Below, piece after piece: positions 1-12,214 of a DNA stretch of 64,000 nucleotides. Origin of the DNA: Alphaproteobacteria bacterium (GTDB lineage Bacteria > Pseudomonadota > Alphaproteobacteria > Bin95); NCBI GenBank assembly GCA_963665325.3, contig OZ224045.1, positions 608,001 through 672,000 on the forward strand, given 5' to 3'. The notes under the pieces are model-generated. The model was given only the letters and a program-made list of their open reading frames with translations, was not told where the DNA came from and ran no database searches. Within the stretch, counting starts at the first letter, position 1, and every line of letters starts with the position of its first letter. A program made the translations under genes and the position numbers.

Positions 1-11
1 CGCGCGCGGGA

Positions 12-666
12 GGCCATGCGGGGCCATGGCGGTGACGATCCGCGAGTTGCGCGCGAAACTCGCTCGCTCCAACAACCGCATGGCCCCCGTTGGCACCGAA
101 AGGCCCCGCAAGGGCACGGGATGGACCCCCATGGCACGCCTGCATCAACGATGCGTGGGGTGTGAAGCCGAAGCCGCCCCGGGCGGTCGGGACGGCCGAA
201 TCGGCAGCATCGATGTTCGGGAAATCGTCGCCGGGGAACCCGGCGGAGGGGAGCCACCACGGCGCTTGAGTGGCGGCTGGCGCGGACACCGCGAAGGGGC
301 GCGGTGTCGAGCGAAGTGACGGCGGGCGCGGCGCGAGCGCCGTCACGAGCACCGGCGGAAGTGCCGGGCGCTCCGCGGGCGGCGGTGCGCGCCGATCGCG
401 ACAGCGGGCGCGCGCAAGTGCATCGGCTGGCGATCGGGCCGACGATCGGCACGGCCGACGGCGGCGAGGGCAGCGGTGCGAAGCACCCTGCCGGGGATGC
501 CGATCATGACGATTGCCATGATGATCGTCGCGACGGTCGCAACGACCGTCGGCGATGGCGAGCGGCGCGAAGCGCGCGAGGATGACGGTGCTGCCGCAAC
601 GCCGTCGGTCGGGAAACGAAACGGGCCGCGCCGCCGTCCCGATGCCGGGATGACGACGCGGCCCGT
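12..666 (+). other. Large structured non-coding region (ssDNA element or ncRNA)
   Basis: Nested inverted repeats 187-196/633-642 and 202-212/586-596 plus many local hairpins; no credible ORF. Confidence 0.55.
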
Positions 667-679
667 CGACGCGCTGCGG

Positions 680-1606
680 TCAGACGCGGCAGACCGGGAT
701 GCCGAGCGAGCGCGCCTTGTCGACGAGGTTCTCGGTGATGCCCGAACCGGGGAACGCGATGACGCCCTTCGGCAGGAGTTGCAGCAGCTCGTCGTTGCGG
801 CGGAACGGGGCGGCGCGTCCGTGACGGTCCCAGTCGGGCTTGCAGACGACCTGGTGGACGCCGTTGCGCTCGGCCCAGCTTGCCGCGATCTTCTCGACGC
901 CGGGGCCGCCGCCATGGACCAGCACCATGTCGCCATGCTTGGCGCGGGTCTTGTCGAGCATGCGGATGACCGCGCCCGGGTCGGCGACGTCCTTGCCGCC
1001 GGCGATGGCGACGAGGGTTCCCTGCGGCAGATGCGCCATGGTCTTGCGGTCCTTCCTCGCGCGCTGGTAGTCGCGGGCGTCGATGGCCGCGCTGGTCAGC
1101 CTGCCGGTCTCGGAGACGTGGCTGCCGCGCCTCGGACGCCAGACGCTACCCGTCGCGTTGCGGTAGGCGTCGGCGGCGGTGTCGCGCAGGGTCTCGAAGG
1201 CGTCGCGGCGGTCGGTGAGGCACTGCGAGCGGTGGGTGGTCATCTCCAGTTCGAGCGACTTGATCTCGGTGCCGTCCTGCGCGCGCTGGAGGTCGCGGAG
1301 TTCGGGCATCAGCTTGTCGGCGGCGCGGTCGAGGCGCCGGGTCTGGGCGTCGAGCATGTTGACGAAGCCCCAGAGCAGGCTCTCGCGTTCGTCGGCGATC
1401 TGGAACCCGTCGGGTGCGACGCCCTCGACCAGGATGCGGAAGGCTTCGCTCACCGCGTCGGTGGCGTCGTCGGCGTCCCAGACCTCGCGGCTGTCGAATT
1501 CGTCGCGCTCGGGTGTCGCGCCGAAGAGCTGCGCCTGTTCGCAGGCGGTTGCGGTGACGGACCGGTCCTGCGCTTCGATGGTGTCGATGTTCTCGATGAG
1601 GGTCAT
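680..1606 (-). CDS. DUF2493 / YspA-related SLOG family protein
   Basis: C-terminal VAIAGG...VLVHGG...W(A)ERNGV...PDWDRHGRAAPFRRNDELL...IAFPGSGITENL motifs; AAGGAG RBS before ATG at 1606. Confidence 0.85.
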   Translation of the reverse strand: MTLIENIDTIEAQDRSVTATACEQAQLFGATPERDEFDSREVWDADDATDAVSEAFRILVEGVAPDGFQIADERESLLWGFVNMLDAQTRRLDRAADKLMPELRDLQRAQDGTEIKSLELEMTTHRSQCLTDRRDAFETLRDTAADAYRNATGSVWRPRRGSHVSETGRLTSAAIDARDYQRARKDRKTMAHLPQGTLVAIAGGKDVADPGAVIRMLDKTRAKHGDMVLVHGGGPGVEKIAASWAERNGVHQVVCKPDWDRHGRAAPFRRNDELLQLLPKGVIAFPGSGITENLVDKARSLGIPVCRV

Positions 1607-1650
1607 GACGATCTCCTTGCGATCGGTTGCACGTACCGGGGCCGATCCCC

Positions 1651-1888
1651 GTCGTGATGTCCTGTTGGGAACCGCGCGCGCAGCGGAAGCACCTGGGCCT
1701 AGAAGCACTTGGGGCGGAGTGGTGCGGAAAGTCGCCGAGTGGTGCGGAAGATCGCTCTGCGATCTTCACGGTCGGCGACTTTCACGGTCCGCCCCTAGAG
1801 CTTCTTGTCCAGGCCGGAGGGAGCTTGCGACCGGAGGACCCGCAGGGTTGCTGTAGCGAGCACGTGGATCACAATGGGACTTCACGAC
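1651..1888 (+). promoter_or_regulatory. Long imperfect hairpin, candidate single-stranded-DNA (Frpo-like) promoter for the DUF2493 gene
   Basis: Stems 1651-1667/1872-1888, 1711-1718/1788-1795, 1727-1738/1772-1783 and 1747-1755/1759-1767; distal arm reads TTGCTG-N16-CACAAT. Confidence 0.6.
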
Positions 1889-1969
1889 GAGGCGAATATC
1901 TCTCCACCTGCACGGCCCCCATCGGCGGTTCGGTCCGGCACGGCGTTCGAAAGGAAGCACGGCGGCGCG

Positions 1970-2311
1970 TCACGCATCGGACCTTTCGGCCAGCGTCTGT
2001 GCCGCCCAGGCGGCCGCCCGTTCGAGCACCTCGCCGTGGCAGGAATGTCCGTCGCCCGCGCACCAGCACGCCAGCCAGCAGCCGTCGAGCTCGGCAAGCT
2101 CTTCGAGCGTGACCTCGCCGGCGCGGATCTGCCGCCAGAGATGAACGCGGTAGCGGGCGACGGCCTCGGCATGCGAGACTCCGCCCGTCACGCGAAACGG
2201 GTTGCCCCACTTCGTGCGGCGGTCGATCAGCACGGTGTTGTTCACCACCTGCGCATATTCGAACGCCTCGCGCAGCTTCGGTTCGTGCCTGAGATTGATG
2301 ACGGCCTCCAT
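1970..2311 (-). CDS. DUF4326 domain protein
   Basis: IDRRTKWGNPF...L(A)CWC...CHGEVL signature; GAGGAGGGAG RBS. Confidence 0.85.
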   Translation of the reverse strand: MEAVINLRHEPKLREAFEYAQVVNNTVLIDRRTKWGNPFRVTGGVSHAEAVARYRVHLWRQIRAGEVTLEELAELDGCWLACWCAGDGHSCHGEVLERAAAWAAQTLAERSDA

Positions 2312-2512
2312 GACTCCCTCCTCGCTCATTGTCGGCTTGCCCGACTCCGTGCTTCTCTCTCCTCCAGCCGGCAGGCACGACGACCGCGGCGGCGGCGTCC
2401 GCCCCCGGCCGGTCGAGGCGCCTGGCCGGGGGCGGGCTCGAAGCCGGCTGCAAAAGAAACAGGCGACCGCCGAAGCAGCCGCCTGAGTTGGGAGGGAGGA
2501 TGCAGTCAGGGC

Positions 2513-2977
2513 TCAAAAGGGAATTTCGGAGCCCAAGTCGTCGCCCTGCGCCGGAGCGCCGCCGGCCGGTACGGTCTCGCCGTTCGCCGACTCCTGCGCG
2601 GCCCGGGCGCCGTTCCCGTTGGCCCCGTTCGGGCGATCCAGGAACTGCACCCTGTGGCCGGGCACGACCAGGATCTCGGTCGAGAAGCGGTCGGAGTCCT
2701 CGCCGTCCTTCTTCCAGCGGCGGGTCTGCAACTTGCCCTCGGCGTGGACCAGGCGGCCCTTCTTCGCATGGCGCACCAGCATGTCGATCAGCCCGTCCTG
2801 GAAGGTCACGACCCTGTGCCACTCGGTCCTGTCGACCTTCTCGCCGTCGCGGTTGAAATACGACTCGTCGGTGGCGATGCTGAGATTGGCCACGCGGCCC
2901 CCGCTCATCAGCTGGTTGACGGTGACGTCGGCGCCGAGGCGGCCGATCAGCTCGACGCGGTTCATTCCGAAGCTCAT
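2513..2977 (-). CDS. ssb: Single-stranded DNA-binding protein (element-encoded)
   Basis: NRVELIGRLGAD, TEWHRVV, EGKLQTRRW, acidic C-terminal EIPF tail. Confidence 0.95.
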   Translation of the reverse strand: MSFGMNRVELIGRLGADVTVNQLMSGGRVANLSIATDESYFNRDGEKVDRTEWHRVVTFQDGLIDMLVRHAKKGRLVHAEGKLQTRRWKKDGEDSDRFSTEILVVPGHRVQFLDRPNGANGNGARAAQESANGETVPAGGAPAQGDDLGSEIPF

Positions 2978-3078
2978 GACGATGCTCCTTCAGTTCTCGA
3001 TGTTGACGATGGTCGAGCGGCGGGACCGGAGAACGCTCTCCCCAGCCCCTTTCCGCTCATCTTCTCCGAAGCCCTCCT

Positions 3079-3234
3079 CTAACTCCGGTCCGCCGGGGCC
3101 TCGCGGTCGGGGCAGCGCCGGGCCCGGTCTTCGCTCAGCGCGTCCCTGACCGAGCGGGCGTCCAAGCCTATTTCGGCGAGGGCGGCGTCGGCGGCGGGGC
3201 CGACAGGGTCGTAATCGGTGTCGAAGGCAAACAT
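3079..3234 (-). CDS. Small hypothetical protein (51 aa, MFAFDTDYDPVG...), absent from the ORF track
   Basis: Read by hand; GGGAG RBS and ccatcATG context like neighbouring genes; co-oriented with them. Confidence 0.5.
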   Translation of the reverse strand: MFAFDTDYDPVGPAADAALAEIGLDARSVRDALSEDRARRCPDREAPADRS

Positions 3235-3405
3235 GATGGGATCTCCCGTGCCGCGCCCGGCCGCGACGGAAACCCTCCCTCGCTCCCAACCGGGCGCCTT
3301 GCCCGGCGAAAGCCCCTCTCGACCTCCCGGCCGGCCCCCCGGCGGACCGGCGGCCCCTGCTCCGACCGCAACGGGCGGGAAGTGCTGCCGCGATACCGGG
3401 CGGCT

Positions 3406-3672
3406 TCAGTGCAGGGTGCTGCCGTTCATGCCGCCGGCACCCGCCCGCAAGCAGCGCGCGGCGAATGCGGTCCAGGCGTTTCGGTCGAGGCCGAGCGCCC
3501 GGTTGAGGGAATCGCATACGGCCAGGCCGTCGGTCCGGTTCAGGGCGACCAGCGCGGTGGGGATGGCGAAGCCGAAGCCCTCGACCAGGATGCGAATCTG
3601 CGGCGGCTCGCCGTCGTCGTCGGCGGCGGGATAGAAGCAATAGGCGGGGTTGTCGGGCAGACGGGCGGTCAT
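3406..3672 (-). CDS. Hypothetical protein (88 aa)
   Basis: GAAGGAG RBS before ATG at 3672; globular-looking sequence. Confidence 0.65.
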   Translation of the reverse strand: MTARLPDNPAYCFYPAADDDGEPPQIRILVEGFGFAIPTALVALNRTDGLAVCDSLNRALGLDRNAWTAFAARCLRAGAGGMNGSTLH

Positions 3673-3792
3673 GATGGAAACTCCTTCGGTGGGGTCCGGG
3701 CCGGCGGGCGCACGGCCGGCCACACGCATGTCGGACGGGGGGGCGGCGGGCCGGCGGCGCAGCAGGGGATGGGTCCGCTGCGCCGCGCGGGA

Positions 3793-5055
3793 TCACCAGG
3801 GCGGAGCGGTCATCGTCGCCATCGGGCTGATGTCGGCGACCACCTCCACCTCGTCGCGCGAGAGCCTGGCGAAGGCGAGGCAGAGCGCGACGTCGGCCTC
3901 GCTGTCATAGGGGCCGTGCTCCCGGCCGGTGGCGATTTCGATCACCGTCCAGCTCGGGTCCCAGATCGGGATGCCGCGGAATGCCCCCGAGCCCTCGCGG
4001 TGCTTGCGGGAACAGGGCTCGCAGCGCGCCACCCCCGGCGAGGGCGTGTTGCATTCGACGCAGCGGCCCCTGGCCCGCCGCTCGGCGTAGCGCCGGCGGC
4101 GGGCAGCGTATTCCGCCTCGCGGTCGCGCCGCTCCTCCTTGGCCACGGCGCAGGGCGCGCAGTAGGCCGCGCCGCCGTAGGTGGGGGTTTGGCACTTGAC
4201 GCAGACCCCGGCGGCTCTCCGGGCATCGTAGCGGGCGCGCGCGGCGTCGCGGCAGGCCTGGCACTCGGCGGCCCCGCCGGCCGGCCTGCCGCAGGTCGTG
4301 CAGTCGCCCCTGGCTCTCCGTTCGGCATAGCGCCGGCGGTCGGTTTCCCGCTTGGTCTTCAGGTTCCGCCGCCCTTCCTTGGCCACGGCGCAGGGTTCGC
4401 AATAGGCCTTGCCGTCCGCCGCGGGCGCCGTGCAATTCACGCACAGGCCGGCGGCGCGGCGCTCGCGATGGCGGGCCCGGGCGGCGTCGCGGCGGTCGTC
4501 CCGGCACGGCTCGCACATCGATCGTCCCTCTTCGGGCGGGACGGCACCGCAGCGGATGCAAAGACCGGCCGCGAGGCGGGCTTCGCTGCGCCGGCGGCTG
4601 CCCTTCCGGCCGGCCCGGCGCCGGGCTACCGGGTCGCGTCCGCCATACGGTATCCCCTCGGCCTTGGCCCTGGCGTGACGAGCGCGGTCACGGGCGCGGT
4701 GCTTCTCCGCGCAGGGCTCGCAGGTCGTGCGATCGGGCCGCGCCGGAGCCCGGCCGCATTTCGTGCAGATGCCGGCGGCCTTGCGCTCGGCGTGCTGGCG
4801 GCGACCACGCTCACGCTCGTAGCGCTTCGCCTGTTCCGGGTCGCGTACGGGCTTGCCCTCGGCCCGGAGCCGGGCGGACCGCGCGCGGTCGGCGGCGCGG
4901 CACCTCTCCGCACAGGGCTCGCAGAGCGTGCGCTCGGGCGCGGGCTCGGTCTTGCCGCATCGCACGCAGAGCCCCGCTGCGCGACGCTCAGCGGTTCGCC
5001 GGTGATAGCGCGCAAGGTCGTTCCTGCGCCGGGCCTCGATATCGCGGTAAGCCAC
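3793..5055 (-). CDS. Arg-rich protein with seven tandem CxxC-x9-11-CxxC zinc-finger-like repeats
   Basis: GTG start with GGAAGGAGG RBS; seven A(A/R)GxCxxC...CxxC units. Confidence 0.85.
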   Translation of the reverse strand: MAYRDIEARRRNDLARYHRRTAERRAAGLCVRCGKTEPAPERTLCEPCAERCRAADRARSARLRAEGKPVRDPEQAKRYERERGRRQHAERKAAGICTKCGRAPARPDRTTCEPCAEKHRARDRARHARAKAEGIPYGGRDPVARRRAGRKGSRRRSEARLAAGLCIRCGAVPPEEGRSMCEPCRDDRRDAARARHRERRAAGLCVNCTAPAADGKAYCEPCAVAKEGRRNLKTKRETDRRRYAERRARGDCTTCGRPAGGAAECQACRDAARARYDARRAAGVCVKCQTPTYGGAAYCAPCAVAKEERRDREAEYAARRRRYAERRARGRCVECNTPSPGVARCEPCSRKHREGSGAFRGIPIWDPSWTVIEIATGREHGPYDSEADVALCLAFARLSRDEVEVVADISPMATMTAPPW

Positions 5056-5140
5056 AACGGCCTCCTTCCTGCCAATCCGGGAGTGGACGGAAGGACGCCC
5101 CGCCGCCAGCAGGCCGGCAGGACGTCCGGGAAGGAGGCCG

Positions 5141-5467
5141 TCAGCCCTTCTGCTTGCGGTCGCACAGGATTCCGGCGGCGATCGAACCCCAGACCTGCAT
5201 GCCGCCGCGGGTCTTCAGGCCAGTGCAGATGATGATCTCGGTGCAGGCGGGGCGCATCTCCCGGACCGCCTTCAGCGTGGCCGTGCTGCGTTTGGCCTTG
5301 CGCCGACTCTTCGCCGCGACCGCTTCGGCGGGGGCGGGAACGATGTCGCCGTCCGCGCGGGCCCGGAAGCGCTCGACCACATAGCGGTCGTCGGCCAGGC
5401 CGGTGCCGAAGAAATGAACCAGAAAGGTCTCCGCCGTGTTGCCGGGGATCGCCATGGCTGCCGTCAT
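5141..5467 (-). CDS. Hypothetical protein (108 aa)
   Basis: AAGGAG RBS; co-oriented with the leading-region genes. Confidence 0.6.
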   Translation of the reverse strand: MTAAMAIPGNTAETFLVHFFGTGLADDRYVVERFRARADGDIVPAPAEAVAAKSRRKAKRSTATLKAVREMRPACTEIIICTGLKTRGGMQVWGSIAAGILCDRKQKG

Positions 5468-5953
5468 GGTGCCGTCTCCTTCGTGCCGATGAGGGGAAAC
5501 GGCGGCCGGACGCCCTCCCCGGACATCCGGCCGCCGCCCCGCTCACGGCCAACCCTCCCCTCTTGCCGGCGAGGAGCGCTCGGGCGGGGAGACCGGGATG
5601 GAAGGCGGCGGGCCGGCAACACGTGTCGGGGCGCGGACGCTGGCATTGGTCTGCGTCACGATTGCTGACGGCGGTATTAACCGTGCATCAGCTTATCGCT
5701 GCCCGGCGCGATCGCCCGTGAGTCGGAGCGAAAGATGACCGGGCGTCTGCGGCAGAACGGTTGAGCCCCGCGAGCCAAAGCGACTACAAGGCCACCATGG
5801 GTTTCGTTGCCCACAGGATCGCGAAGGGGTGTCGATGAGCGTGGAACCGGGACCGGCGGGACCGCGTTTCGTGTTACGTTGGTCGCGAGGTATCCGAGGG
5901 CGCGCGAGCGGCGGGCGGAGGTTCGATCGGGCAGGTCTTCAGGGAGCGAGCGC

Positions 5954-6241
5954 ATGAATAAGGCGGAACTTGTCGGCGACGTGGCCGCTCGAACCGGATT
6001 GAGCCGGACGGATGCGGCCGGCGCGGTGGATGCGGTGTTCGAGGCGGTCACCGAGTCGCTTGGCCGGCGGGAGGAAGTGAGGATCGCCGGGTTCGGCCGG
6101 TTCGCCACCAGGTCCCGGCCCGCCCGTACCGCACGCAATCCGCGCACGGGTGAGCCCGTTGCGGTGGCGGCTTCGACCGCGCCGTCGTTCAAGCCGGCCA
6201 GGGCGCTCCGCGAGACCGTGAACGGCGGAGCCTCCTCGTGA
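5954..6241 (+). CDS. hup: HU family DNA-binding protein
   Basis: MNKAELV...V(R)IAGFGRF...ARTARNPRTGE...PSFKPA(R)ALRE. Confidence 0.95.
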   Translation: MNKAELVGDVAARTGLSRTDAAGAVDAVFEAVTESLGRREEVRIAGFGRFATRSRPARTARNPRTGEPVAVAASTAPSFKPARALRETVNGGASS

Positions 6242-6300
6242 GCCCGATCGGACCTTCGGTGCCAGAGTTCGTCATGTGCCGCGTTTGACGTCCGTGCAGA

Positions 6301-6426
6301 ATGCCCAAGGCACGTGATGCAATTCGCCTCGTCGAACGGGAGGGCTGGTCGCTAGTCCGGGTCAGCGATCGCCACCCAGCTTGAAGGGTTACAAATCGCC
6401 CCGGCTCACTGGAAGTGGGACACTGA
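6301..6426 (+). pseudogene. Decayed HicA-like toxin
   Basis: MPKARDAIRLVEREGWSLVR resembles HicA N-termini; GSH motif lost, in-frame TGA at 6382-6384, then TNRPGSLEVGH. Confidence 0.45.
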
Positions 6427-6511
6427 ACTTGATGCCGCACGAAAGTATATGGTGGGCATTTCGCCTGTTTGGTGTGGCGGTACTGCGATAGCGCAAGGAA
6501 GTTCGTGGCTG

Positions 6512-6754
6512 TTACAAGTCCAACCTCCGTAGGAGATCCTGGATGCCGACTCCGTGATGCCGGGCGATGCTCTTCAGGATGCTGGACAGCGTCTTCGCCC
6601 GGAGCGGGTCGTGCAGCGGGATGACCTCATGGTGCTCGCCTCCGGTCTGCGTCGTGATACGCACGTGCGAGCCGCGTTGGCGCACTTGCTCATAGCCGAT
6701 GCGACGAAGCGCCGCCACCAGGGTGGCGCCGCTCACGTCGCGCGGCAACTTCAT
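6512..6754 (-). CDS. hicA: Type II TA toxin, HicA family
   Basis: GYEQVRQRGSHVRI, IPLHDPL, TLSSILK; ATGA overlap with hicB. Confidence 0.9.
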   Translation of the reverse strand: MKLPRDVSGATLVAALRRIGYEQVRQRGSHVRITTQTGGEHHEVIPLHDPLRAKTLSSILKSIARHHGVGIQDLLRRLDL

Positions 6755-6969
6755 GCCACCAGAACCTCGTCCCGTACGAAATGCAGCCGGATCAGGCTCG
6801 GGCGCTCCATGCCGTCGTCGAAGTAGCAGTCCACCGCTTCTCGCACGTTGCGGCGGAGGTCTTCGAGGCTGTCGCCTTGGGTGTGGATGCCAAAGCCGAG
6901 CGCGCCGGCCGAGTAACCACCGTCCAACTCGTCCTCACTGACTTCGAAGATGATCTCCGTCCCGGACAT
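6751..6969 (-). CDS. hicB: Type II TA antitoxin, short HicB family (no DNA-binding domain)
   Basis: DGGYSA...IHTQGDSLEDLRRNVREAVDCYF; GGAG RBS. Confidence 0.88.
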   Translation of the reverse strand: MSGTEIIFEVSEDELDGGYSAGALGFGIHTQGDSLEDLRRNVREAVDCYFDDGMERPSLIRLHFVRDEVLVA

Positions 6970-7367
6970 TGGTGTCTCCACTTGCCGCTACGTTCATGCC
7001 GCCGCATTCGACGACCATCGCCCACAGTCGATCCTACCCTATGCGGAGCGGCGGTCGAGCGGATTCTTGTTTTGTCCGATCCGCGTGGGCGGTTTGCGGA
7101 GCAACGGACAAGGATATGGCTGTCCAGGCCCATGAATTCGGCATGGTTCCGGGGTTGAATTCAGCCGGTCGAATTGAAGACGGGCGCGCTATGGCCAGTC
7201 TGTGAGCCCTCGACAGTCCTGCGCTGAGTCTACCCGTCCAACGCTCCGTGAGCATTACTTACGGCTGGCCGACATGACCATATACAGAAACTGCGTGGGC
7301 CCAGGGGCCAGGGGGCACGGATCATGTCGCCGGTTGTCTGGTAGAATCAAGGAAGCGGGGCGCCTCC

Positions 7368-8564
7368 CTATAGAACATCGGCGGCAATGCTGACCGCTAT
7401 CCTCTCAGCGGATTCCCTGACCGAGTCACGCGCGAGATGCGCATAGCGCGCGGTGGTTTCTATCCTGCGGTGGCCGAGCAGCCGGCCGATGATCGGCAGG
7501 CCCTCGCCGAGCGCCAGCGCCCTGGACGCGAACGAATGTCGAATGTCGTGGATGCGCACGTCATCCAGCCCGGCCTTCGCGCGGATGCTCTGCCACGCCC
7601 CATCGATGTCGGCCATGTGCGTGCCCGGCTTCGCGCCCGGAACGACCCACGGATTGTCCGGTTCGCGCGGCAGGGCCGCGAGCACGTTCACCGCCGCCGG
7701 CGACAGGTGGACCGTGCGGTCGCCAGTCTTCCCGTTGACGATGCGCATCTCCGCCCTGTCGAGATCGACATGCTTCCAGGGCAGGGTCATGATCTCGTTC
7801 TTGCGGCAGCCCGTCAGCATCAGCAGGCGGATCGTCGTGACCGCCCCCGCCGATACCTGGCTGCCGTTCCCCGACACCTCGTCGAGCACCTGCCCGAGGC
7901 GGGTGAACTCGGCGTCGGTCAGGAAGCGCTCGCGCTTCTTCTTCGGGTTCATTGGAATCGACCGGCACGGATCGTCGTGGTCCTCGGGGACCATGTCCCA
8001 GCCCTTGGCGAGCTTGTACATGTAGGTCAGGGTCTCGACGACCATGTTGGCCATGGCGGGGATTTCGCACAGGCTCTCGTGCAGCGCCATGACGTGGCGC
8101 CGCTCCACCGCCGCGATCGGCAGCTTGCCGAGCGCCGGCACGATGTGGCGGTTGACGACGCTGCGCGCGGTGCGCTGCGTCTTCGGCTTGCAGCGGGCCG
8201 CGACATGCTCTTCGAGATAGCGCCGCCCCAGGTCGGCGACGGTCGGCCCGCCGGCGTGTTTCGCAGGGAGCGGCAGGGGCACCGGATCCTCGCCGGCCTT
8301 GACGCGCGCGATGATGAGCGCGGCCCGCTGGCGCGCCTCGGTGGCGCTCAGCACCGGATGGCGCCCGACCGTGATGCGCCTCGGCCGGTTGGGCCTGCCC
8401 GGCCCGTCGGGACCGCGCGCCTGGGCGACGAAGACCTTGCCGCCGGTCGGGTATACCCGGACGCCGAAGCCGGTCAGGGTGCGGTCCCAGAACACCGTGT
8501 CGCGCTCGACGAAAAGCGCCTCCACCGTGCGGTTGGAGAGCGTCCTGTATTGCAGCACCGCCAT
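7368..8564 (-). CDS. Tyrosine recombinase/integrase with arm-type DNA-binding N-terminus (type B, copy 2)
   Basis: WDRTLTGFGVRV; TGCRKNE, GKTG, HDIRH, LGH...TTARY catalytic set intact. Confidence 0.93.
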   Translation of the reverse strand: MAVLQYRTLSNRTVEALFVERDTVFWDRTLTGFGVRVYPTGGKVFVAQARGPDGPGRPNRPRRITVGRHPVLSATEARQRAALIIARVKAGEDPVPLPLPAKHAGGPTVADLGRRYLEEHVAARCKPKTQRTARSVVNRHIVPALGKLPIAAVERRHVMALHESLCEIPAMANMVVETLTYMYKLAKGWDMVPEDHDDPCRSIPMNPKKKRERFLTDAEFTRLGQVLDEVSGNGSQVSAGAVTTIRLLMLTGCRKNEIMTLPWKHVDLDRAEMRIVNGKTGDRTVHLSPAAVNVLAALPREPDNPWVVPGAKPGTHMADIDGAWQSIRAKAGLDDVRIHDIRHSFASRALALGEGLPIIGRLLGHRRIETTARYAHLARDSVRESAERIAVSIAADVL

Positions 8565-8576
8565 CGCCCGCGCCTC

Positions 8577-9761
8577 CTATGCCGCCTCGGCGTCCGGCGC
8601 CGCGAGGTGGGCGCCGATGCTGTCTCCGGTGCGCGCCGCGGCGGCCTTCTCCGCGTCGTGCACGAGATGCGCATACCGGGCGGTGGTGCCGACCTTGGAA
8701 TGGCCGAGTATGCGCCCGATCATCGTCAGGCTCTCGCCGAGGGCCAGCGCGCGCGAGGCGTGCGAATGACGAAGATCGTGGATGCGCACGCCCTCGATGC
8801 CGGCATGGTCCTTGATGCGGTTCCAGTAGTAGGTGAGGTCGGGCAGGCAGATGCCGGGCTTCTGGCTCGGGATGACCCACGGATTGCCTTCGACGCGCTC
8901 GATGCCGTCGAGCACCTTCAGGGCCGGCGTGGTCAGCGGCACCATGCGCGGGCCACGCTTGCCGTCGCGGAGCCGGAACTCGCCGGCGGTGTGGTCGACG
9001 TCGTCCCATCGGAGTGTGAGGATCTCGGACTTGCGGCAGCCGGTCAGCATCAGCAGCCGGATCGCGGCGATCGCCGGCGGCCACATCCAGCCTCCGGCCT
9101 CGGCTTCCCTGAGCGCCGCGCCGACGCGGCGGTACTCCTCCGCCGTCAAGAACCGCTCGCGGGCCTGCTCGCGGTAGTGCCGGACCATCCTGCAGGGATT
9201 GCGGCCGCGGGGCACCAGTTCCCATGTCTCGGCGAGCGAGAACATCTTCGAGAGCATCGAGACGACGTGGTTGGCCATCGAGGGCGTGTTGCGCAGGCGG
9301 TCGTGGAGCTCGATGACGTGGCTCGACCGCACGTCCTTCACCGCCATGGTTCCGAGCGCGGGGACGATGTGCCGGTCGATGGCGGTGCGGTAGAGCTTCT
9401 CCGTCTTCGGCTTGCAGTGGACCTTCACGTAGGCGCGCATCGCGCGCGCCGCGAGGTCGGCGACGGTGGGGTCCGGTTCCGGCTTCGGAGGCAGCGGCTC
9501 CAGTCCGCGCTTGATGCGGTCGATGACCTCGGCCGCCTCGCGGCGTCTCTGATCGATCGCCTTCCCGGGGACGGGTCCAAGGGTGACGCGCTTGAGGCCG
9601 GCGGGACCGCGCGACTGGACGACATAGACCTTGCGGCCGTTACGCTGGACGCGGACGCCGAAACCGGCGAGGTCGCGGTCCCAATGAACGGCGTCCCTGC
9701 CGGTCGCCGGCAGGGCGGCGACGCTGCGGGTGGTGAGGCGGAGGGTGCTTCTCTTCGGCAT
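8577..9761 (-). CDS. Tyrosine recombinase/integrase (type A, copy 2)
   Basis: MPKRSTLRLT start; WDRDLAGFGVRV; TGCRKSE, HDLRH, LGH...TTARY. Confidence 0.93.
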   Translation of the reverse strand: MPKRSTLRLTTRSVAALPATGRDAVHWDRDLAGFGVRVQRNGRKVYVVQSRGPAGLKRVTLGPVPGKAIDQRRREAAEVIDRIKRGLEPLPPKPEPDPTVADLAARAMRAYVKVHCKPKTEKLYRTAIDRHIVPALGTMAVKDVRSSHVIELHDRLRNTPSMANHVVSMLSKMFSLAETWELVPRGRNPCRMVRHYREQARERFLTAEEYRRVGAALREAEAGGWMWPPAIAAIRLLMLTGCRKSEILTLRWDDVDHTAGEFRLRDGKRGPRMVPLTTPALKVLDGIERVEGNPWVIPSQKPGICLPDLTYYWNRIKDHAGIEGVRIHDLRHSHASRALALGESLTMIGRILGHSKVGTTARYAHLVHDAEKAAAARTGDSIGAHLAAPDAEAA

Positions 9762-9820
9762 GGCGGTCCCCGGGGTCGCGGCGGCTCGATTCGGCTCCGA
9801 ATTGGAAGGTTGCAAATTGA

Positions 9821-9921
9821 GTCATCAAACCGCAAACGAGCGGCATCAACCTGTGGGGATAGCCTAGGCCGGCTCTGGCCTCAATTCAAGGGGTCGTGGG
9901 TGCCGAGGAAAGACAAAAACC
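9821..9921. repeat. Conserved upstream/end segment of integrase pair, copy 2
   Basis: 25/29 identity to 12040-12068, with further collinear blocks (TCAAGGG, GAGGA.AGA.AAA.ACC). Confidence 0.7.
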
Positions 9922-9937
9922 TATGTAAGACGCTAAG

Positions 9938-10810
9938 TTAGACCGCACATGGCCGCGATAGGAACCAGGAGGACGTGGCTGGCCGGGGGAAGAAAAAATC
10001 GCCTGTCTTAGAATCGGGAAGGCGCAACTCGCCGGCATCGAGATCGACGTCCGTCCAGCGCAGCGCGAGGACCTCGCCCTTGCGGCAGCCGGTCAGCATC
10101 AGCAGGCGGATCGCCGCCGCCGCCACGGGAGAGGCGGTTCCGGCCTCCACGGCCTCGTCCAGCGCCCGCCCGAGCCGGGTGAACTCGGCGTCGGTCAGGA
10201 AGCGCTCGCGGCCGCGCTCGGGATGTTTCTCGATCGACCGGCACGGGTTGCAGCCCGCCGGCACAAGGCCCCAGCCTTCGCCCAGACGGTACATGTGCGC
10301 CAGGGTCTTGACCGCCCGGTTGGCCGCCACCGGGCGGCCGCTCAGCCCGCGGTGCAGCTCGACGACCTGCCTGCGCTCCACCGCCTCGACCGGCAGCCGG
10401 CCGAGGGCGGGCAGGATATGGCGGCGCAGCACGCCGCGGAGCTTCGCCTGCGTCCTCGGCTTGAGCCGGACCTCGACATGATCCTCCAGATAACGGGCCG
10501 CAAGGTCGGCCACGGTCGGGCCGCCCCTGGCGCGGGCCGCGAGCGGCAGCGCCACCGGGTCCTCGCCCGCCTTGATGCGCGTGACGATCAGCGCCGCCCT
10601 CCGGCGCGCCTCGTCGGCGTTGAGCACGCCGTGCCGGCCCACCGTCACCCGCTTCGGCCCCTCCGGCCCCCGCGCCTGGGCGATATAGACCTTGCCGCCG
10701 GTCGGATAGACCCGGACCCCGAAGCCGGTCACGGTCCGGTCCCAGAACACCGTGTCGCGCTCGACCGTCATGGCCGCCACGGAGCGGTTGGAGATCGTCC
10801 TCTGCTGCAT
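9938..10810 (-). pseudogene. C-terminally truncated tyrosine recombinase (type B, copy 1)
   Basis: Homologous to 7368-8564 up to DSKTG, then an unrelated tail; lacks HxxR and the catalytic Tyr. Confidence 0.85.
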
Positions 10811-10821
10811 CGCCGTTCCCC

Positions 10822-12006
10822 TCACGCCGCCTCGGCGTCGCCGGGCATGATCCAGGCGGCGATGCTGCCGCCGGTCCGGGCGGCCGCCGCCTTCTCGGCG
10901 TCGCGCACCAGGTGGGCGTATTTCGCGGTGGTGCCGACCCGGGCATGGCCGAGCAGGCGCCCGATGACCGGCAGGCCCTCGCCGAGCGCCAGCGCCCGGC
11001 TGGCGTAGGAGTGACGGCAGTCGTGGAGCCGCACGTCATGGAGCCCCGTCGCCTTCCTGACCCGCCGCCAGTGCCAGGACAGGCAGGCCAGACGGCTCTG
11101 CGGCTTCGCCCCCCTGAGCACCCAGGGAACGCCGTCCTCCCGCTCGATGCCGTCCAGCACCTTCAGCACCGGCCCGGTCAGCGGCACCATGCGCGGGCCC
11201 GTTTTCGAGTCGCGGAGCCGCAAGACCCGCGCCGCGCGGTCGATGTCGTCCCATTGCAGGGTCAGGATCTCGTCCGAGCGGCAGCCGGTCAGCATCAGCA
11301 GGCGGATCGCCGCGATGGCGGAGGGCTGCATCGAGCCCTCGGCCTCGAAGGTCTTCAGCACATCGCCGATGAGCCGGAACTCGTCCGGCGTCAGGAAGCG
11401 CTCGCGGGGCGTCTCGCGGTACTGGCGGACATGCCGGCAGGGGTTGCATCCGGGCGGGACCATCTCCCAGCTCTCGGCCAGCGCGAACATCTTCGAGAGC
11501 ACCCAGATCGCCTGGTTGGCCGCCGCCGGCGTATCGCGCAGTCCGTGGTGGAGCCCCGCCGCGTCTTCCGGCGCGACGTCCTTCAGCGCCTTGCTCCCCA
11601 GCGCCGGCAGGATGTGGCGCTCGATGGACATGCGGTAGTTCTTCGCCGTCCTCGGCTTGCAGCGCGCGGCGACATGGTCCTTCAGGCAGAGTGCCGCCAG
11701 GTCGGCGACGGTGGGCTCGGGCGCCGGTTCCGGCTGCTTCGGGTCCTCGCCCCGCTTGATGCGGTCGATGGCCGCCGCCGCCTCGCGGCGGCGCTCCTCC
11801 ACAGTCTTCTCACCGGCCGGCCCGAGCGTCGCCCGCTTCAGGCCTGCCGGTCCCCTCGACTGGACGATGTAGAGCTTGCGCCCGGTGGCGTGGACCCTGA
11901 CCCCAAAGCCGGCGAGGTCGCGGTCCCAGAAGATGGCGTCCTTGCCGCCGGGCTTGAGCCCGTCCACAATCCGCTTGGTCAGCCTGAGGGTGCTCCGTTT
12001 CGGCAT
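10822..12006 (-). CDS. Tyrosine recombinase/integrase (type A, copy 1)
   Basis: MPKRSTLRLT start; TGCRSDE, DSKTG, HDCRH, LGH...TTAKY; same length (394 aa) as copy 2. Confidence 0.93.
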   Translation of the reverse strand: MPKRSTLRLTKRIVDGLKPGGKDAIFWDRDLAGFGVRVHATGRKLYIVQSRGPAGLKRATLGPAGEKTVEERRREAAAAIDRIKRGEDPKQPEPAPEPTVADLAALCLKDHVAARCKPRTAKNYRMSIERHILPALGSKALKDVAPEDAAGLHHGLRDTPAAANQAIWVLSKMFALAESWEMVPPGCNPCRHVRQYRETPRERFLTPDEFRLIGDVLKTFEAEGSMQPSAIAAIRLLMLTGCRSDEILTLQWDDIDRAARVLRLRDSKTGPRMVPLTGPVLKVLDGIEREDGVPWVLRGAKPQSRLACLSWHWRRVRKATGLHDVRLHDCRHSYASRALALGEGLPVIGRLLGHARVGTTAKYAHLVRDAEKAAAARTGGSIAAWIMPGDAEAA

Positions 12007-12039
12007 CGCCGCGCTCCGTCCCGAAATGCCCGCATATCG

Positions 12040-12140
12040 GTCATCAAACCGCATACGGACGACATCAAATCGGGGGCGATTGAAGGCGATGCTTGGCGGG
12101 AAGTCAAGGGTTCGGATGCCGGTGAGGACAGAAAAATACC
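12040..12140. repeat. Conserved upstream/end segment of integrase pair, copy 1
   Basis: GTCATCAAACCGCATACGGACGACATCAA, matching 9821-9849. Confidence 0.7.
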
Positions 12141-12214
12141 ATACATTACAACACTCTTTCACAATCGTGACACTGGACGGCGGGCGGCGGCAGTGATTGG
12201 CAACAATTCAATGC

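Follow-up and report, generated by a model that had tools for sequence, protein, structure and literature searches.

A predicted MOBF-type oriT with a covarying post-nick module and a strand-biased hairpin array in a chromosomal ICE

How an entering strand is protected and converted into a duplex is poorly known outside F-like plasmids, IncI plasmids and ICEBs1. ICEBs1 carries a functional, orientation-specific sso directly downstream of oriT and nicK (PMC4595007); its authors reasoned that, with the sso placed there, the att site does not become double-stranded before the element has recircularised. This sso1 spans ~200 nt with three defined stem-loops. The leading regions of F, ColIb-P9 and pESBL contain Frpo/ssi promoters, which two papers (PMC11541004; PMC12672017) present as transferred-strand structures, active only as ssDNA and proposed as a source of primer RNA. 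Frpo-type promoters are single large stem-loops that rebuild the −35 and −10 elements upstream of leading operons, and current work seeks large promoter-mimicking stem-loops. DNA mini-hairpins far exceed the equivalent RNA hairpins in stability, are poorly bound by SSB and withstand nucleases (PMC13037366); they are known at the phage G4 complementary-strand origin, RSF1010 ssiA and the ssDNA promoters of phage N4, where they were tied to primase or polymerase entry and SSB exclusion. Loops of the d(GNA) type are very stable, with a C:G closing pair worth ~2-3 kcal/mol extra (PMC3201870). The TrwC relaxase needs a purine 3′ of the nick (PMC4176350). R388 accepts every base at positions 27-32 past its nick, so the model MOBF systems offer no precedent for a required post-nick module. 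REP/BIME arrays consist of GC-rich palindromes in variable number between convergent genes, and HUH enzymes recognise these units as ssDNA hairpins.

The window analysed here is the whole 64,000-nt stretch of DNA. We read its positions 1-680 as the oriT region of an ICE with an F-type T4SS and a MOBF relaxase, together with the start of the leading region, and not as one folded molecule; the probability of this whole explanation is, in our estimate, about 0.5. The features are as follows.

1..141, no strand assigned: trailing side of oriT, with iterated GAGTTGCGC- and GCGAAACTCGC-type direct and inverted repeats
142..154, + strand: H1, the putative relaxase recognition hairpin, GCATC-AAC-GATGC, 5-bp stem
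153..164, + strand: nick core GCGTGGGGTGT/G (the slash marks the nick), predicted nick between T163 and G164
164..277, + strand: conserved post-nick module with three covarying hairpins (H2, H4, H5)
173..187, + strand: H2, GCCGCC-CCG-GGCGGT, starting 10 nt 3′ of the predicted nick
229..245, + strand: H4, CGCCGGG-GAA-CCCGGCG, 7-bp stem and GAA triloop, perfect in the window
253..277, + strand: H5, with the nearly invariant 9-nt loop GGCG(A/C/T)TTGA, closing the post-nick module
285..577, + strand: variable hairpin-cassette array (285-308, 316-346, 352-367, 431-448, 475-487 with GCGAAGC, 531-551, 565-577 with GCGAAGC)
610..666, − strand: terminator-like hairpin, stem 666-657/630-621, then GTTTCGTTTCC (620-610)
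680..1609, − strand: DUF2493/YAcAr (SLOG) gene, the first leading-region gene, converging on the oriT region (Pfam PF10686, E 6.3e-24)

Window 142-164 is a predicted MOBF-type oriT, with the 5-bp hairpin H1 followed by GCGTGGGGTGT/G. The nick core at 153-164 matched the F oriT oligonucleotide 5′-TTTGCGTGGGGTGT/GGT (PMC2504302), which carries the nic core of F TraI, over 12/12 nt. It was unchanged across the copies found by BLAST, which were not chosen by pattern. The layout of IR2-nic of R388 TrwC, a 5-bp stem and 9 nt before the nick, recurs in the window; an A follows the nick in R388 and G164 follows it here, which fits the purine requirement of TrwC. Among 87 distinct homologues, H1 was paired in 97.2% of cells and 3/5 of its pairs had changed on both sides, the pair 8/33 occurring as UA 36, GC 22, CG 19 and AU 4 times. 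The initial annotation did not contain the nick site at 142-164.

The cognate relaxase gene, of the TrwC/MobF family, ends ~830 nt upstream of the window start. The 1077-aa product matched Pfam TrwC (E 3.7e-88) and helicase domains, as well as NCBIfam MobF with 308.8 bits (cut-off 100) and relax_trwC with 288 bits (cut-off 145.5), and its relaxase domain shares ~40% identity with the TraI proteins of F-like plasmids. Upstream of oriT there are also genes for an F-type T4SS and for a coupling protein. The features by which a MOBF oriT is recognised were found side by side: a cognate TrwC/MobF relaxase, the nick sequence of the family, and a 5′ hairpin, the spacer that in this family forms a single-stranded U-turn before the nick, and a 3′ purine. 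A 127-aa ORF upstream of the nick is a member of the + strand transfer operon that includes the T4SS, coupling protein and relaxase genes. It had no family in Pfam or NCBIfam and appears ribbon-helix-helix-like only from reading its sequence.

The + strand is predicted to be the transferred strand, with 164 onwards as the first DNA into the recipient. The nick motif on the + strand points to this assignment, and the orientation of the leading genes is a second, independent line. All 11 called genes between 680 and 12162, SSB among them, are − strand genes, for which the + strand serves as template; leading-region genes run in the same sense relative to the T-strand (PMC11541004). In an F-like plasmid chosen by tblastn for comparison, the nick motif was found once, between the SLT gene and traM, where oriT is known to lie. 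This plasmid has a hairpin beginning 9-10 nt past the nick, as H2 does in the window, and its leading genes likewise point towards oriT. However, the first 600 nt past its nick are the SLT transglycosylase coding gene, whereas the window has a hairpin array. Unlike in the plasmid, the relaxase operon runs towards oriT here, and the element is chromosomal with integrases at its flanks and ~70% G+C in oriT.

The nick site splits the 12-666 span, taken earlier as a single folded element, into two functionally different halves. The first half is the trailing side of oriT, which extends ~130 nt upstream of the window start. It contains the palindrome 42-63 (42-52/53-63) and the inverted repeat 9-21/76-88, which correspond to L001 1542-1552/1553-1563 and 1509-1521/1576-1588; a repeat scan of L001 1365-1665 gave 3 direct-repeat families and 11 inverted pairs. 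The inverted repeats of a "separate domain at 12-85" are therefore present, as parts of the trailing side. The paralogues were alignable only downstream of ~130-142. We regard the trailing-side repeats as putative binding sites for a relaxosome accessory protein.

The homologues are kin, and 80 of their loci were found by pattern, so that counts taken over the homologues make them look more independent than they are; in the 80 loci, invariance of the two motifs used as patterns is a circular result. The family extends over many phyla, with MAGs labelled Alpha- and Gammaproteobacteria, Binatia, Acidobacteriota, Thermodesulfobacteriota and Poribacteria, and a genome often has several copies, up to 10 per chromosome. 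A blastn search of PLSDB with window 100-700 gave no match. Our literature search, which did not extend to subscription journals and supplements, found nothing direct on the oriT or leader of this ICE family.

The post-nick module at 164-277 was conserved among these homologues, and its hairpins covaried. In a sequence-only alignment of 104 homologues, covariation was 0.199 vs 0.109 after shuffling (0/500 shuffles reached the observed value) and 0.058-0.077 with the partners slid. In a model-based alignment of 87 distinct sequences, which as a model-fitted alignment is biased towards the structure that built it, 79.1% of cells were paired vs 67.5% when shuffled, and 22/29 pairs had changed on both sides, a count reached by 0/500 shuffles. 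H2 was paired in 80.6% of cells, with 5/5 modelled pairs changed on both sides, and H4 in 85.0%, with 7/7 pairs changed on both sides across homologues. For H5, 76.6% of cells were paired, and the pair 247/261 showed A-T/G-C covariation (GC 63, AU 17, GU 5). The invariance of the H5 loop is circular in the pattern-selected loci; the loop was also kept in 26 copies found by BLAST. A further helix, H3b (CGAT...ATCG, window 210-226), was dropped with only 43.9% of cells paired. A leader that acts as ssDNA does not account for the invariant loop motif of H5.

Total leader length varied: the DUF2493 stop codon lay 252 to 1204 nt from the nick in 68 distinct loci. The hairpins of the array at 285-577 have perfect stems in the window, and in 9 close homologues they showed compensatory changes, with 82.2% of cells paired vs 25.5-44.8% with the partners slid and a covariation of 0.147 vs 0.090 when shuffled (0/500 reached it). 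In other copies the cassettes were duplicated or reordered, forming a mosaic that is not a single repeated consensus. The first kb of the window contains 9 perfect triloop hairpins (stem of at least 5 bp), and the whole 64 kb contains 115, or ~1.8/kb.

The GAA triloops and the two GCGAAGC motifs (478-484 and 567-573) pointed out in the initial annotation are present and proved the most informative lead. In 68 homologous intergenic regions, perfect triloop hairpins with a stem of 5 bp or more numbered 125 (distinct ones only), 60 of them with GNA and 2 with TNC loops on the + strand; once 4-bp stems were admitted, the counts were 86 and 10. At the latter threshold a C:G pair closed 63/86 GNA loops vs 73/190 other triloops, and only 3/87 tetraloops in the homologous regions were GNRA. 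GNA exceeded TNC in 59/68 regions and fell below it in 1/68. The flanks served as controls, with 15 GNA vs 10 TNC upstream (250 hairpins) and 28 vs 7 downstream (116 hairpins). Such C:G-closed GNA loops are the signature of DNA mini-hairpins and not of the RNA GNRA type. The number of GNA hairpins reached 10 per region, whereas the smallest members of the family (252-294 nt) had 0-2. In consequence, the array cannot be essential, and an indispensable function must lie in 164-277.

The leader shares several traits with the described single-strand signals. Like sso1 of ICEBs1 (PMC4595007), it is non-coding, predicted to be highly structured as ssDNA, and placed directly after oriT with the relaxase gene as neighbour. 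It differs from the three stem-loops of sso1 in pairing a conserved module with an array of variable number. Furthermore, the ICEBs1 lineage belongs to Firmicutes and our element is a Proteobacteria-type MOBF element with an F-type T4SS. The likeness noted here is one of structure and position. The C-GNA-G and GCGAAGC hairpins on an ssDNA strand recall the G4 origin, RSF1010 ssiA and the promoters of the N4 virion RNAP; those sites, however, have one to three hairpins and a defined enzyme partner, as against up to 10 GNA hairpins per region here. Similarly, the array resembles REP/BIME in its GC-rich palindromic units of variable number between convergent genes, but our searches found the cassettes only beside this oriT module and showed no transposase of the RAYT type, and the units do not follow one consensus.

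The observed anatomy, conservation and covariation, strand bias, and family assignments of relaxase and nick motif are the starting point for a proposed function, in which nicking between 163 and 164, folding of the ssDNA in vivo and priming are steps that we infer. The TrwC-family relaxase would recognise the hairpin 142-154 and nick the + strand at the 3′ end of GCGTGGGGTGT, separating 163 from 164. Led by its 5′ end, the + strand would go out of the donor, and 164 onwards would enter the recipient first. The leader, made up of the module at 164-277 and the array at 285-577, would work as single-stranded DNA, its GNA mini-hairpins on the transferred strand being unusually stable, nuclease-resistant and poor substrates for SSB. 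It may be a signal of the single-strand-origin or priming type, or may offer an SSB-free landing pad where complementary-strand synthesis starts, acting after transfer and perhaps also in rolling-circle replication in the donor. The conserved, extensive secondary structure expected of sso/ssi sites was found here, both as covariation and as folding relative to shuffles. A primer made in the leader would run towards the nick and could continue only once the strand had recircularised, so that the end with the attachment site and integrase would become double-stranded last. The logic proposed for ICEBs1, in which the second strand waits for recircularisation, would thereby carry over to the leader. 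An ssDNA signal on the entering strand, of the sso/priming or the SSB-excluding type, is to us the most likely function.

A more specific joint reading is doubtful but deserves to be stated. The MOBF/F-type ICE family may start its transferred strand with an ssDNA organelle, composed of the ~115-nt module and an expandable C-GNA-G array, that would fold on emergence in the recipient into an SSB-proof and nuclease-proof cap, perhaps with a folding ratchet that commits entry, and would also be the start site of complementary-strand synthesis. It would be a single-strand origin using DNA-specific loop chemistry and not promoter mimicry, and the searchable literature describes no conjugative system in these terms. 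Should the array prime or protect the leading end, the sso concept would extend to MOBF elements of Gram-negative and other phyla, and a one-strand GNA triloop bias beside the nick site could become a simple signature for predicting oriT, and which strand is transferred, where an element is unannotated. Should the array be dispensable, the finding shrinks to an ordinary oriT annotation with palindromic filler. In either case, the locus gives a confidently placed predicted nick site for an uncharacterised ICE family of broad apparent host range and often multiple copies, a conserved post-nick module in which hairpins covary and one loop motif is invariant, and a strand-specific mini-hairpin array whose loop chemistry argues for a function in DNA over RNA.

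It is rather unlikely that the repeats act instead in the donor, on double-stranded or supercoiled DNA, as sites for relaxosome or regulatory proteins or as cruciforms that melt the GC-rich oriT for loading of the relaxase-helicase 3′ of the nick. Inverted repeats are classical protein sites, the invariant H5 loop and conserved 164-277 suggest recognition by a protein, and the region has ~70% G+C. The relaxase also matches, weakly and below the cut-off, the ssDNA-binding domain associated with the TraI helicase (E 9.7e-05). Moreover, both strands folded better than shuffles: with RNA parameters over 1-680, z was −5.34 for the + strand and −5.16 for the − strand (0/20 shuffles as good for each), and with DNA parameters over 164-612 the + strand reached −155.4 kcal/mol (z −3.22, 1/100) and the − strand −141.3 kcal/mol (z −4.22, 0/100). 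The excess of inverted repeats is thus real, but fold energy alone picks no strand. The energy of the + strand was lower than that of the − strand in 36/41 regions, a comparison confounded by the G-richness of the + strand, seen in 41/41 regions examined (G 0.38-0.47, C 0.23-0.34). Wobble pairs likewise make a weak strand test. The statement that most wobbles are G.T on the + strand holds only weakly, with G.T in 17/183 pairs of the window MFE structure on + and 12/182 on −; in the conserved helices across homologues, G.T occurred 75 times vs 49 for A.C, with the order reversed in H4 (19 vs 25). Sites acting on double-stranded DNA predict, however, no strand bias of the loops, in disagreement with the 60 GNA vs 2 TNC observed, and no compensatory upkeep of pairing beyond palindromic half-sites. 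In addition, the iterated repeats typical of accessory-protein sites are on the other side of the nick.

We consider it unlikely that the hairpins act in + strand RNA, either at the 3′ end of a transfer-operon read-through, where they would terminate or stabilise the mRNA, or as an unnamed ncRNA. The upstream operon is transcribed in the + sense and stops ~290 nt ahead of the hairpins, and the covariation and + strand loop bias suit + RNA as well as + DNA. GC-rich hairpins stacked between convergent genes are also a common terminator arrangement. Nevertheless, the loops are C:G-closed GNA triloops and not GNRA or UNCG tetraloops, and the RNA counterparts of such mini-hairpins are much less stable (PMC13037366). 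No T-run follows the hairpins on the + strand, and the number and order of the cassettes vary, unlike in a defined ncRNA. A large named RNA found no support in Rfam, with no match in 1-680 at gathering thresholds; the best permissive match was MIR531, with 21.2 bits against a gathering score of 70 and E 0.31.

It is quite unlikely that the array at 285-577 lacks a function in its own right, with its palindromic cassettes multiplied through slippage, duplication and recombination because the non-coding gap separating the convergent genes tolerates them, and with selection on the nick site, module and terminator only. The mosaic of duplicated and reordered cassettes, the wide range of lengths and the near absence of GNA hairpins from the minimal members would agree with this explanation. 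Compensatory changes that keep the pairing do not, and loop type, closing pair and strand are biased well past the flank controls, in a pattern that recurs in 59/68 regions and several phyla.

The non-coding character claimed for the region stands. Mismatches lacked 3-base periodicity in 10/10 pairwise comparisons (p 0.08-0.99), while the adjacent gene, used as a control, showed it in 8/10 (p<0.002). A small protein encoded on either strand, for example in a hydrophobic stretch at ~497-560, is very improbable: despite high-GC3 open frames on both strands, one of which resembles a membrane helix, and a 9-nt (3-codon) deletion within 497-560 in one paralogue, none of the 4 ORFs tested had a Pfam family, the indels, mostly not multiples of three, break the frames, other paralogues lack the segment, copies less closely related have it replaced, and long open frames are expected by chance at 70% G+C.

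The fold drawn in the initial annotation was a ~650-nt multibranch element closed by long-range helices. Every complementarity on which it was built is present: 187-196/633-642 has 10/10 Watson-Crick pairs, 202-212/586-596 has 10 and one T.G, 621-630/657-666 has 10/10 pairs, and the hairpins at 229-245, 285-308, 316-346, 475-487 and 531-551 are perfect. The part of that reading concerned with local hairpins was borne out by their conservation; the single multibranch fold was not, as its long-range helices are not conserved. The helix 187-196/633-642 was paired in 46.6% of cells in the 9 close homologues without any compensatory change, and its 3′ partner was deleted in two paralogues, whereas 202-212/586-596 was paired in 63.6%. 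Taken jointly, the three long-range helices gave a covariation of 0.073 vs 0.071 when shuffled, a value reached by 215/500 shuffles. One global fold was also tried with RNAalifold on the 104-sequence MAFFT alignment and rejected, yielding 3 pairs, all within the invariant H5 loop region, and alifold on a sub-family gave little. Since the hairpins were not column-aligned between sub-families, global alignment folding was abandoned for named structures and a covariance model.

The third of these helices, 621-630/657-666, had been described as a pseudoknot or switch and behaves instead like a terminator for the DUF2493 gene, on the opposite strand. It was 98.8% paired and invariant, hence carrying no covariation information; in the 9/9 close homologues the stem was unchanged, with the loop shortened by deletion in two paralogues. 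On the − strand, the 10-bp stem starts 14 nt past the DUF2493 stop codon and encloses a 26-nt loop, followed by an interrupted T-run. In 11/37 matched homologues the stem had C.A on the + strand, which only the − strand can pair, as G.U, and the − strand continues into T-rich tails. A consensus terminator scan made no call at 621-666, where the loop exceeds 8 nt and the T-run is interrupted. We find 621-666 best read as a putative minus-strand terminator of the convergent gene. A DUF2493 homologue was located downstream of the motif and on the opposite strand in 51/80 pattern-found loci with flanks, and no other arrangement was seen.

The array had also been considered as an ssDNA promoter for the leading genes. 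It lies, however, at their 3′ end, so that transcription templated by the + strand and starting in the array would run into the nick. A consensus scan of window 1-2000 found neither sigma-70-like hexamer pairs nor consensus terminators. In comparison with Frpo, the array therefore has many short hairpins at the 3′ end of the leading genes and no sigma-70-like hexamers, and so lacks the traits of an Frpo-type promoter. No element-encoded primase was seen among the high-GC3 ICE ORFs that were scanned, a part of all ORFs. We also observed a better Frpo-like candidate at window ~1684-1829.

The feature at window positions 1-680 sits between two convergent gene ends, with TraE, TraC, TraU and TraN of an F-type secretion system farther upstream.

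Genes around the feature (window positions; upstream genes read from the genome)
Upstream, + strand: TraG_N protein; TrwB/TraD-type coupling protein; 1077-aa relaxase-helicase; NYN-domain fragment; 127-aa ORF
680-1609, - strand: DUF2493/YAcAr gene
1970-2329, - strand: DUF4326 gene
2513-2977, - strand: SSB gene
Then, - strand: unnamed ORFs and four tandem tyrosine integrases (7368-12162); housekeeping genes beyond

The relaxase-helicase matched Pfam TrwC (E 3.7e-88), carried AAA_30 and UvrD_C_2 domains too, and scored above the NCBIfam cut-offs for MobF (308.8 bits; cut-off 100) and relax_trwC (288 bits; cut-off 145.5). Its relaxase domain shared ~40% identity with TraI from F-like plasmids. 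The 127-aa ORF upstream of the nick was assigned no family. The gene content on both sides places the start of the window within an integrative conjugative element, close to its right end. The tandem tyrosine-recombinase genes at that end encode 398, 412, 295 and 446 aa, the third without most of the catalytic domain, and suggest that insertion has recurred at a single site. Immediately before the window (locus L039, 9161-9487), a 109-aa ORF flanked by the relaxase gene and the 127-aa ORF retains only the C-terminal part of a NYN domain (positions 104-142 of the 145 in the profile) and is probably a gene remnant. In the leading region, a 420-aa ORF built from Cys-X2-Cys repeats with abundant Arg, Ala and Glu (3793-5055, - strand) matched no Pfam or NCBIfam family.

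The initial annotation had outlined a folded non-coding element at 12-666 and overlooked its key feature, a putative oriT nick site at 142-164. There, GCATC-AAC-GATGC is followed by GTGGGGTGT|G. The 12 bases GCGTGGGGTGTG are identical to the nicked-strand oligonucleotide of F oriT, 5'-TTTGCGTGGGGTGT|GGT (PMC2504302). The layout, i.e. a 5-bp hairpin, 9 nt, the nick and a purine, is that of the R388 substrate GCGCACCGAAAGGTGCGTATTGTCT|ATAG, for which a purine is reported to be obligatory right after the nick and the following six bases free (PMC4176350). Because of this F- and R388-like sequence and layout, with a MOBF relaxase gene adjacent, we predict a cut at 163|164 on the + strand. This would make the + strand the one that is transferred, led by position 164. 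As a second line for this strand assignment, the + strand is the template for all 11 called genes in 680-12162, and leading-region genes have been reported in that same orientation, with the T-strand as template (PMC11541004). The earlier idea of a transferred-strand element was supported. In an F-like plasmid, the leading genes are oriented as in the window, and after the same nick motif come a single hairpin, equally far from it, and then an SLT gene; the main anatomical difference is that the plasmid, unlike the window, has no hairpin array after the nick. The predicted oriT is of an already known kind, and the putative transferred-strand ssDNA element beside it is a new variant.

On the trailing side of the nick (window -89 to 63; 1411-1563 of L001, the locus carrying the window), we observed at least six copies, direct and inverted, of a 9-13-nt motif (GAGTTGCGC, complement GCGCAACTC, variant GCGAAACTCGC), which are likely accessory-protein sites. 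Across this stretch, the paralogues are unrelated in sequence to the window.

The stretch after the nick, 164-277 (the module), was found in all homologues. Besides its own copy, the window's genome held five further long copies (73-99% identical), one of them ~72 kb upstream on the same contig, and two partial ones (contigs C1, C3, C4, C5). A search of the window's own genome and 60 relatives found matches in 16/61 genomes, and in 13 of the 16 that belong to the same genus; in those copies ~130-286 and ~557-680 were conserved and the middle varied. A scan for TGCGTNNGGTGTG-N90-102-CGGCGNTTGAG, with one genome per species, matched at least 89 stretches. By record title, the matches listed came from Alpha- and Gammaproteobacteria, Binatia, Acidobacteriota (Bryobacterales, Terriglobia, Vicinamibacteria), Thermodesulfobacteriota and Poribacteria, mostly MAGs, a breadth that binning errors could inflate. 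The 4.99-Mb MAG chromosome OZ241969.1 held at least 10. Three matches (two Streptomyces, one Senegalimassilia) showed no similarity beyond the pattern and were dropped as chance. Among the matches listed, 80 loci were examined together with their flanks, the three chance matches included: a DUF2493 homologue lay downstream on the opposite strand in 51 and in any other arrangement in none, DUF4326 lay downstream in 18 and SSB in 11, a homologue of the 127-aa ORF lay upstream in 23 (7 oriented as in the window, 16 reversed), and a relaxase was within reach in 7. None of these was present in 21, including the chance matches.

A protein-coding reading was rejected. Mismatches between the window and 10 homologues showed no 3-base periodicity in the intergenic part (p 0.08-0.99; p<0.002 in 8/10 of the same comparisons for the adjacent gene), indel lengths there were mostly not 3n, and the four ORFs crossing the region matched no Pfam family; the conserved frame that would have contradicted the initial annotation was not found. 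Nor did Rfam point to a known RNA, with no match at gathering scores and, permissively, only a 21-bit match to a miRNA model (E 0.31).

Every complementarity listed in the initial annotation is present, and the region is more stably folded than its dinucleotide shuffles. Folded with RNA parameters, 1-680 gave z -5.34 (+) and -5.16 (-), 0/20 shuffles being as good on either strand; with DNA parameters, 164-612 gave -155.4 kcal/mol on the + strand (z -3.22, 1/100 shuffles) and -141.3 kcal/mol on the - strand (z -4.22, 0/100). The inverted-repeat excess is real, and fold energy does not choose between the strands. The expected covariation was also seen in local hairpins. For five hairpins named on the window sequence, in a sequence-only MAFFT alignment of 104 homologues, it was 0.199 vs 0.109 +/- 0.005 in shuffles (0/500 reached it) and 0.058-0.077 with partners slid. 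A covariance model built from 37 sequences had 93 matches in 100 loci searched, with 24 further loci left out and no match to the chance loci. In its alignment of 87 distinct sequences, which is fitted to the model and consists of kin, 79.1% of cells paired vs 67.5% shuffled and 32-51% slid, and 22/29 pairs had changes on both sides, which 0/500 shuffles reached.

Hairpins in the model alignment (87 sequences)
142-154, + strand: H1, paired in 97.2% of cells
173-187, + strand: H2, 80.6%; 5/5 modelled pairs compensated
229-245, + strand: H4, 85.0%
253-277, + strand: H5, 76.6%; nearly invariant loop GGCG(A/C/T)TTGA

A further helix of our own proposal, H3b (210-226), paired in only 43.9% of cells and was dropped. 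In pattern-found loci, the invariance of the two motifs used for the scan is circular; both were conserved in 26 BLAST-found copies, where no pattern selection applied. The single large fold initially proposed was not supported: its long-range helix 187-196/633-642 paired in 46.6% of cells with zero compensation, its 3' partner being deleted in two paralogues, 202-212/586-596 paired in 63.6%, and jointly the three long-range helices covaried at 0.073 vs 0.071 (215/500 shuffles reached that). The crossing pairing 621-630/657-666, previously taken for a pseudoknot or switch, we read instead as a probable terminator of the DUF2493 gene on the - strand. There the stem starts 14 nt past the stop codon and is followed by GTTTCGTTTCC, and the corresponding tails are T-rich in homologues. 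The stem is invariant in 9 close homologues, and 11/37 matchable homologues have a C.A on the + strand, i.e. a G.U wobble on the - strand only. A consensus terminator scan did not flag it because of its 26-nt loop.

Two module sub-families were observed. In one (L042, L045, L047, L050, L059, L076, L078, L086, L088, L094, L110, L113, L117, L118 and others), H5 is replaced by AGCCCGAGCGGCGCTTGAGCGGCAGCGCCC, and nearly all loci are without a DUF2493, DUF4326, SSB or 127-aa ORF homologue within 2.5 kb; L094 has the last of these upstream. In the other (L043, L048, L056, L057, L082, L085, L123, L125, L127), CACACC occurs ~55 nt 3' of the nick; it is complementary to the nick core GGTGTG and could pair with the nick site or constitute, on the opposite strand, an inverted nick-like site. 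Locus L083 has a second, weaker module match (1311-1453, - strand; 24 bits, E 3.4e-4), in opposite orientation ~1 kb upstream of the main one.

Loop sequences were surveyed in 68 distinct regions, 40,970 nt altogether, each bounded by the nick and the stop codon of DUF2493. They contained 125 distinct perfect triloop hairpins whose stems had 5 or more pairs. On the + strand, 60 of these had GNA loops and 2 had TNC loops, which read as GNA on the - strand (86 vs 10 with stems of 4 or more), and GNA made up 48% of triloops vs ~10% estimated from loop base composition. GNA outnumbered TNC in 59/68 regions and TNC outnumbered GNA in one; the 8 ties were mostly the shortest regions. Flank controls gave 15 GNA vs 10 TNC among 250 triloop hairpins upstream of the same loci and 28 vs 7 among 116 in the downstream leading genes. 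With stems of 4 or more, a C:G pair closed 63/86 GNA loops vs 73/190 other triloops. The + strand was G-rich in 41/41 regions examined. Triloops of the d(GNA) type with a C:G closing pair are classical DNA mini-hairpins, and that pair contributes ~2-3 kcal/mol (PMC3201870). Such mini-hairpins are described as nuclease-resistant and poorly bound by SSB, with far less stable RNA counterparts, and are known at the phage G4 complementary-strand origin, RSF1010 ssiA and phage N4 ssDNA promoters (PMC13037366). The clue in the initial annotation, GAA triloops including GCGAAGC, was supported; its claim that wobbles are mostly G.T on the + strand survived only as a weak excess (75 G.T vs 49 A.C in H1, H2, H4 and H5). 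A rival reading takes the region for the 3' end of a + strand RNA. GNRA loops numbered only 3/87 among tetraloops. With the GNA bias pointing to the + strand, and the C:G closing and DNA-specific stability of mini-hairpins to DNA, the region more likely acts as + strand DNA than as RNA, on indirect evidence. A second rival, action in the donor as double-stranded DNA or a cruciform, would fit a fold energy that is similarly low on both strands; the loop preference is for one strand.

The leader consists of the module and, beyond it, an array of hairpin cassettes (285-577), which is a mosaic, with the window's cassettes reordered or duplicated in other copies. Because of this mosaicism, a total length of 252-1204 nt from the nick to the DUF2493 stop codon and only 0-2 GNA hairpins in the shortest family members, the array is expandable and probably not essential. 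Neutral palindromic filler could look like this; in 9 close homologues of 134-682, 82.2% of cells paired vs 25.5-44.8% slid, with covariation of 0.147 vs 0.090 (0/500).

With a probability of about one half for the statement as a whole, we favour reading the leader as an sso-like or priming signal, or as an SSB-excluding ssDNA signal. In ICEBs1, a functional, orientation-specific sso directly follows oriT and the relaxase gene (PMC4595007). A primer synthesised on the + strand within the leader would run toward the nick, and could be extended past it only after the relaxase recircularises the strand; the ICEBs1 authors argue likewise that synthesis waits for recircularisation (PMC4595007). The ssDNA-promoter option of the initial annotation was excluded for the leading genes, as the array lies at their 3' end and is without promoter hexamers. 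Elsewhere, the + strand at ~1684-1829, which lies 75-220 nt before the start codon of DUF2493 (1609), is predicted to form a long, unbranched, imperfect hairpin (57 pairs in the DNA MFE) that carries GAGTGGTGCGGAA twice on its 5' arm, each facing TTCACGG on the 3' arm, which gives two conserved bubbles. This hairpin is a candidate ssDNA (Frpo-like) promoter or operator, and hairpins of at least 25 pairs occurred upstream of DUF2493 homologues in 13/52 distinct loci.
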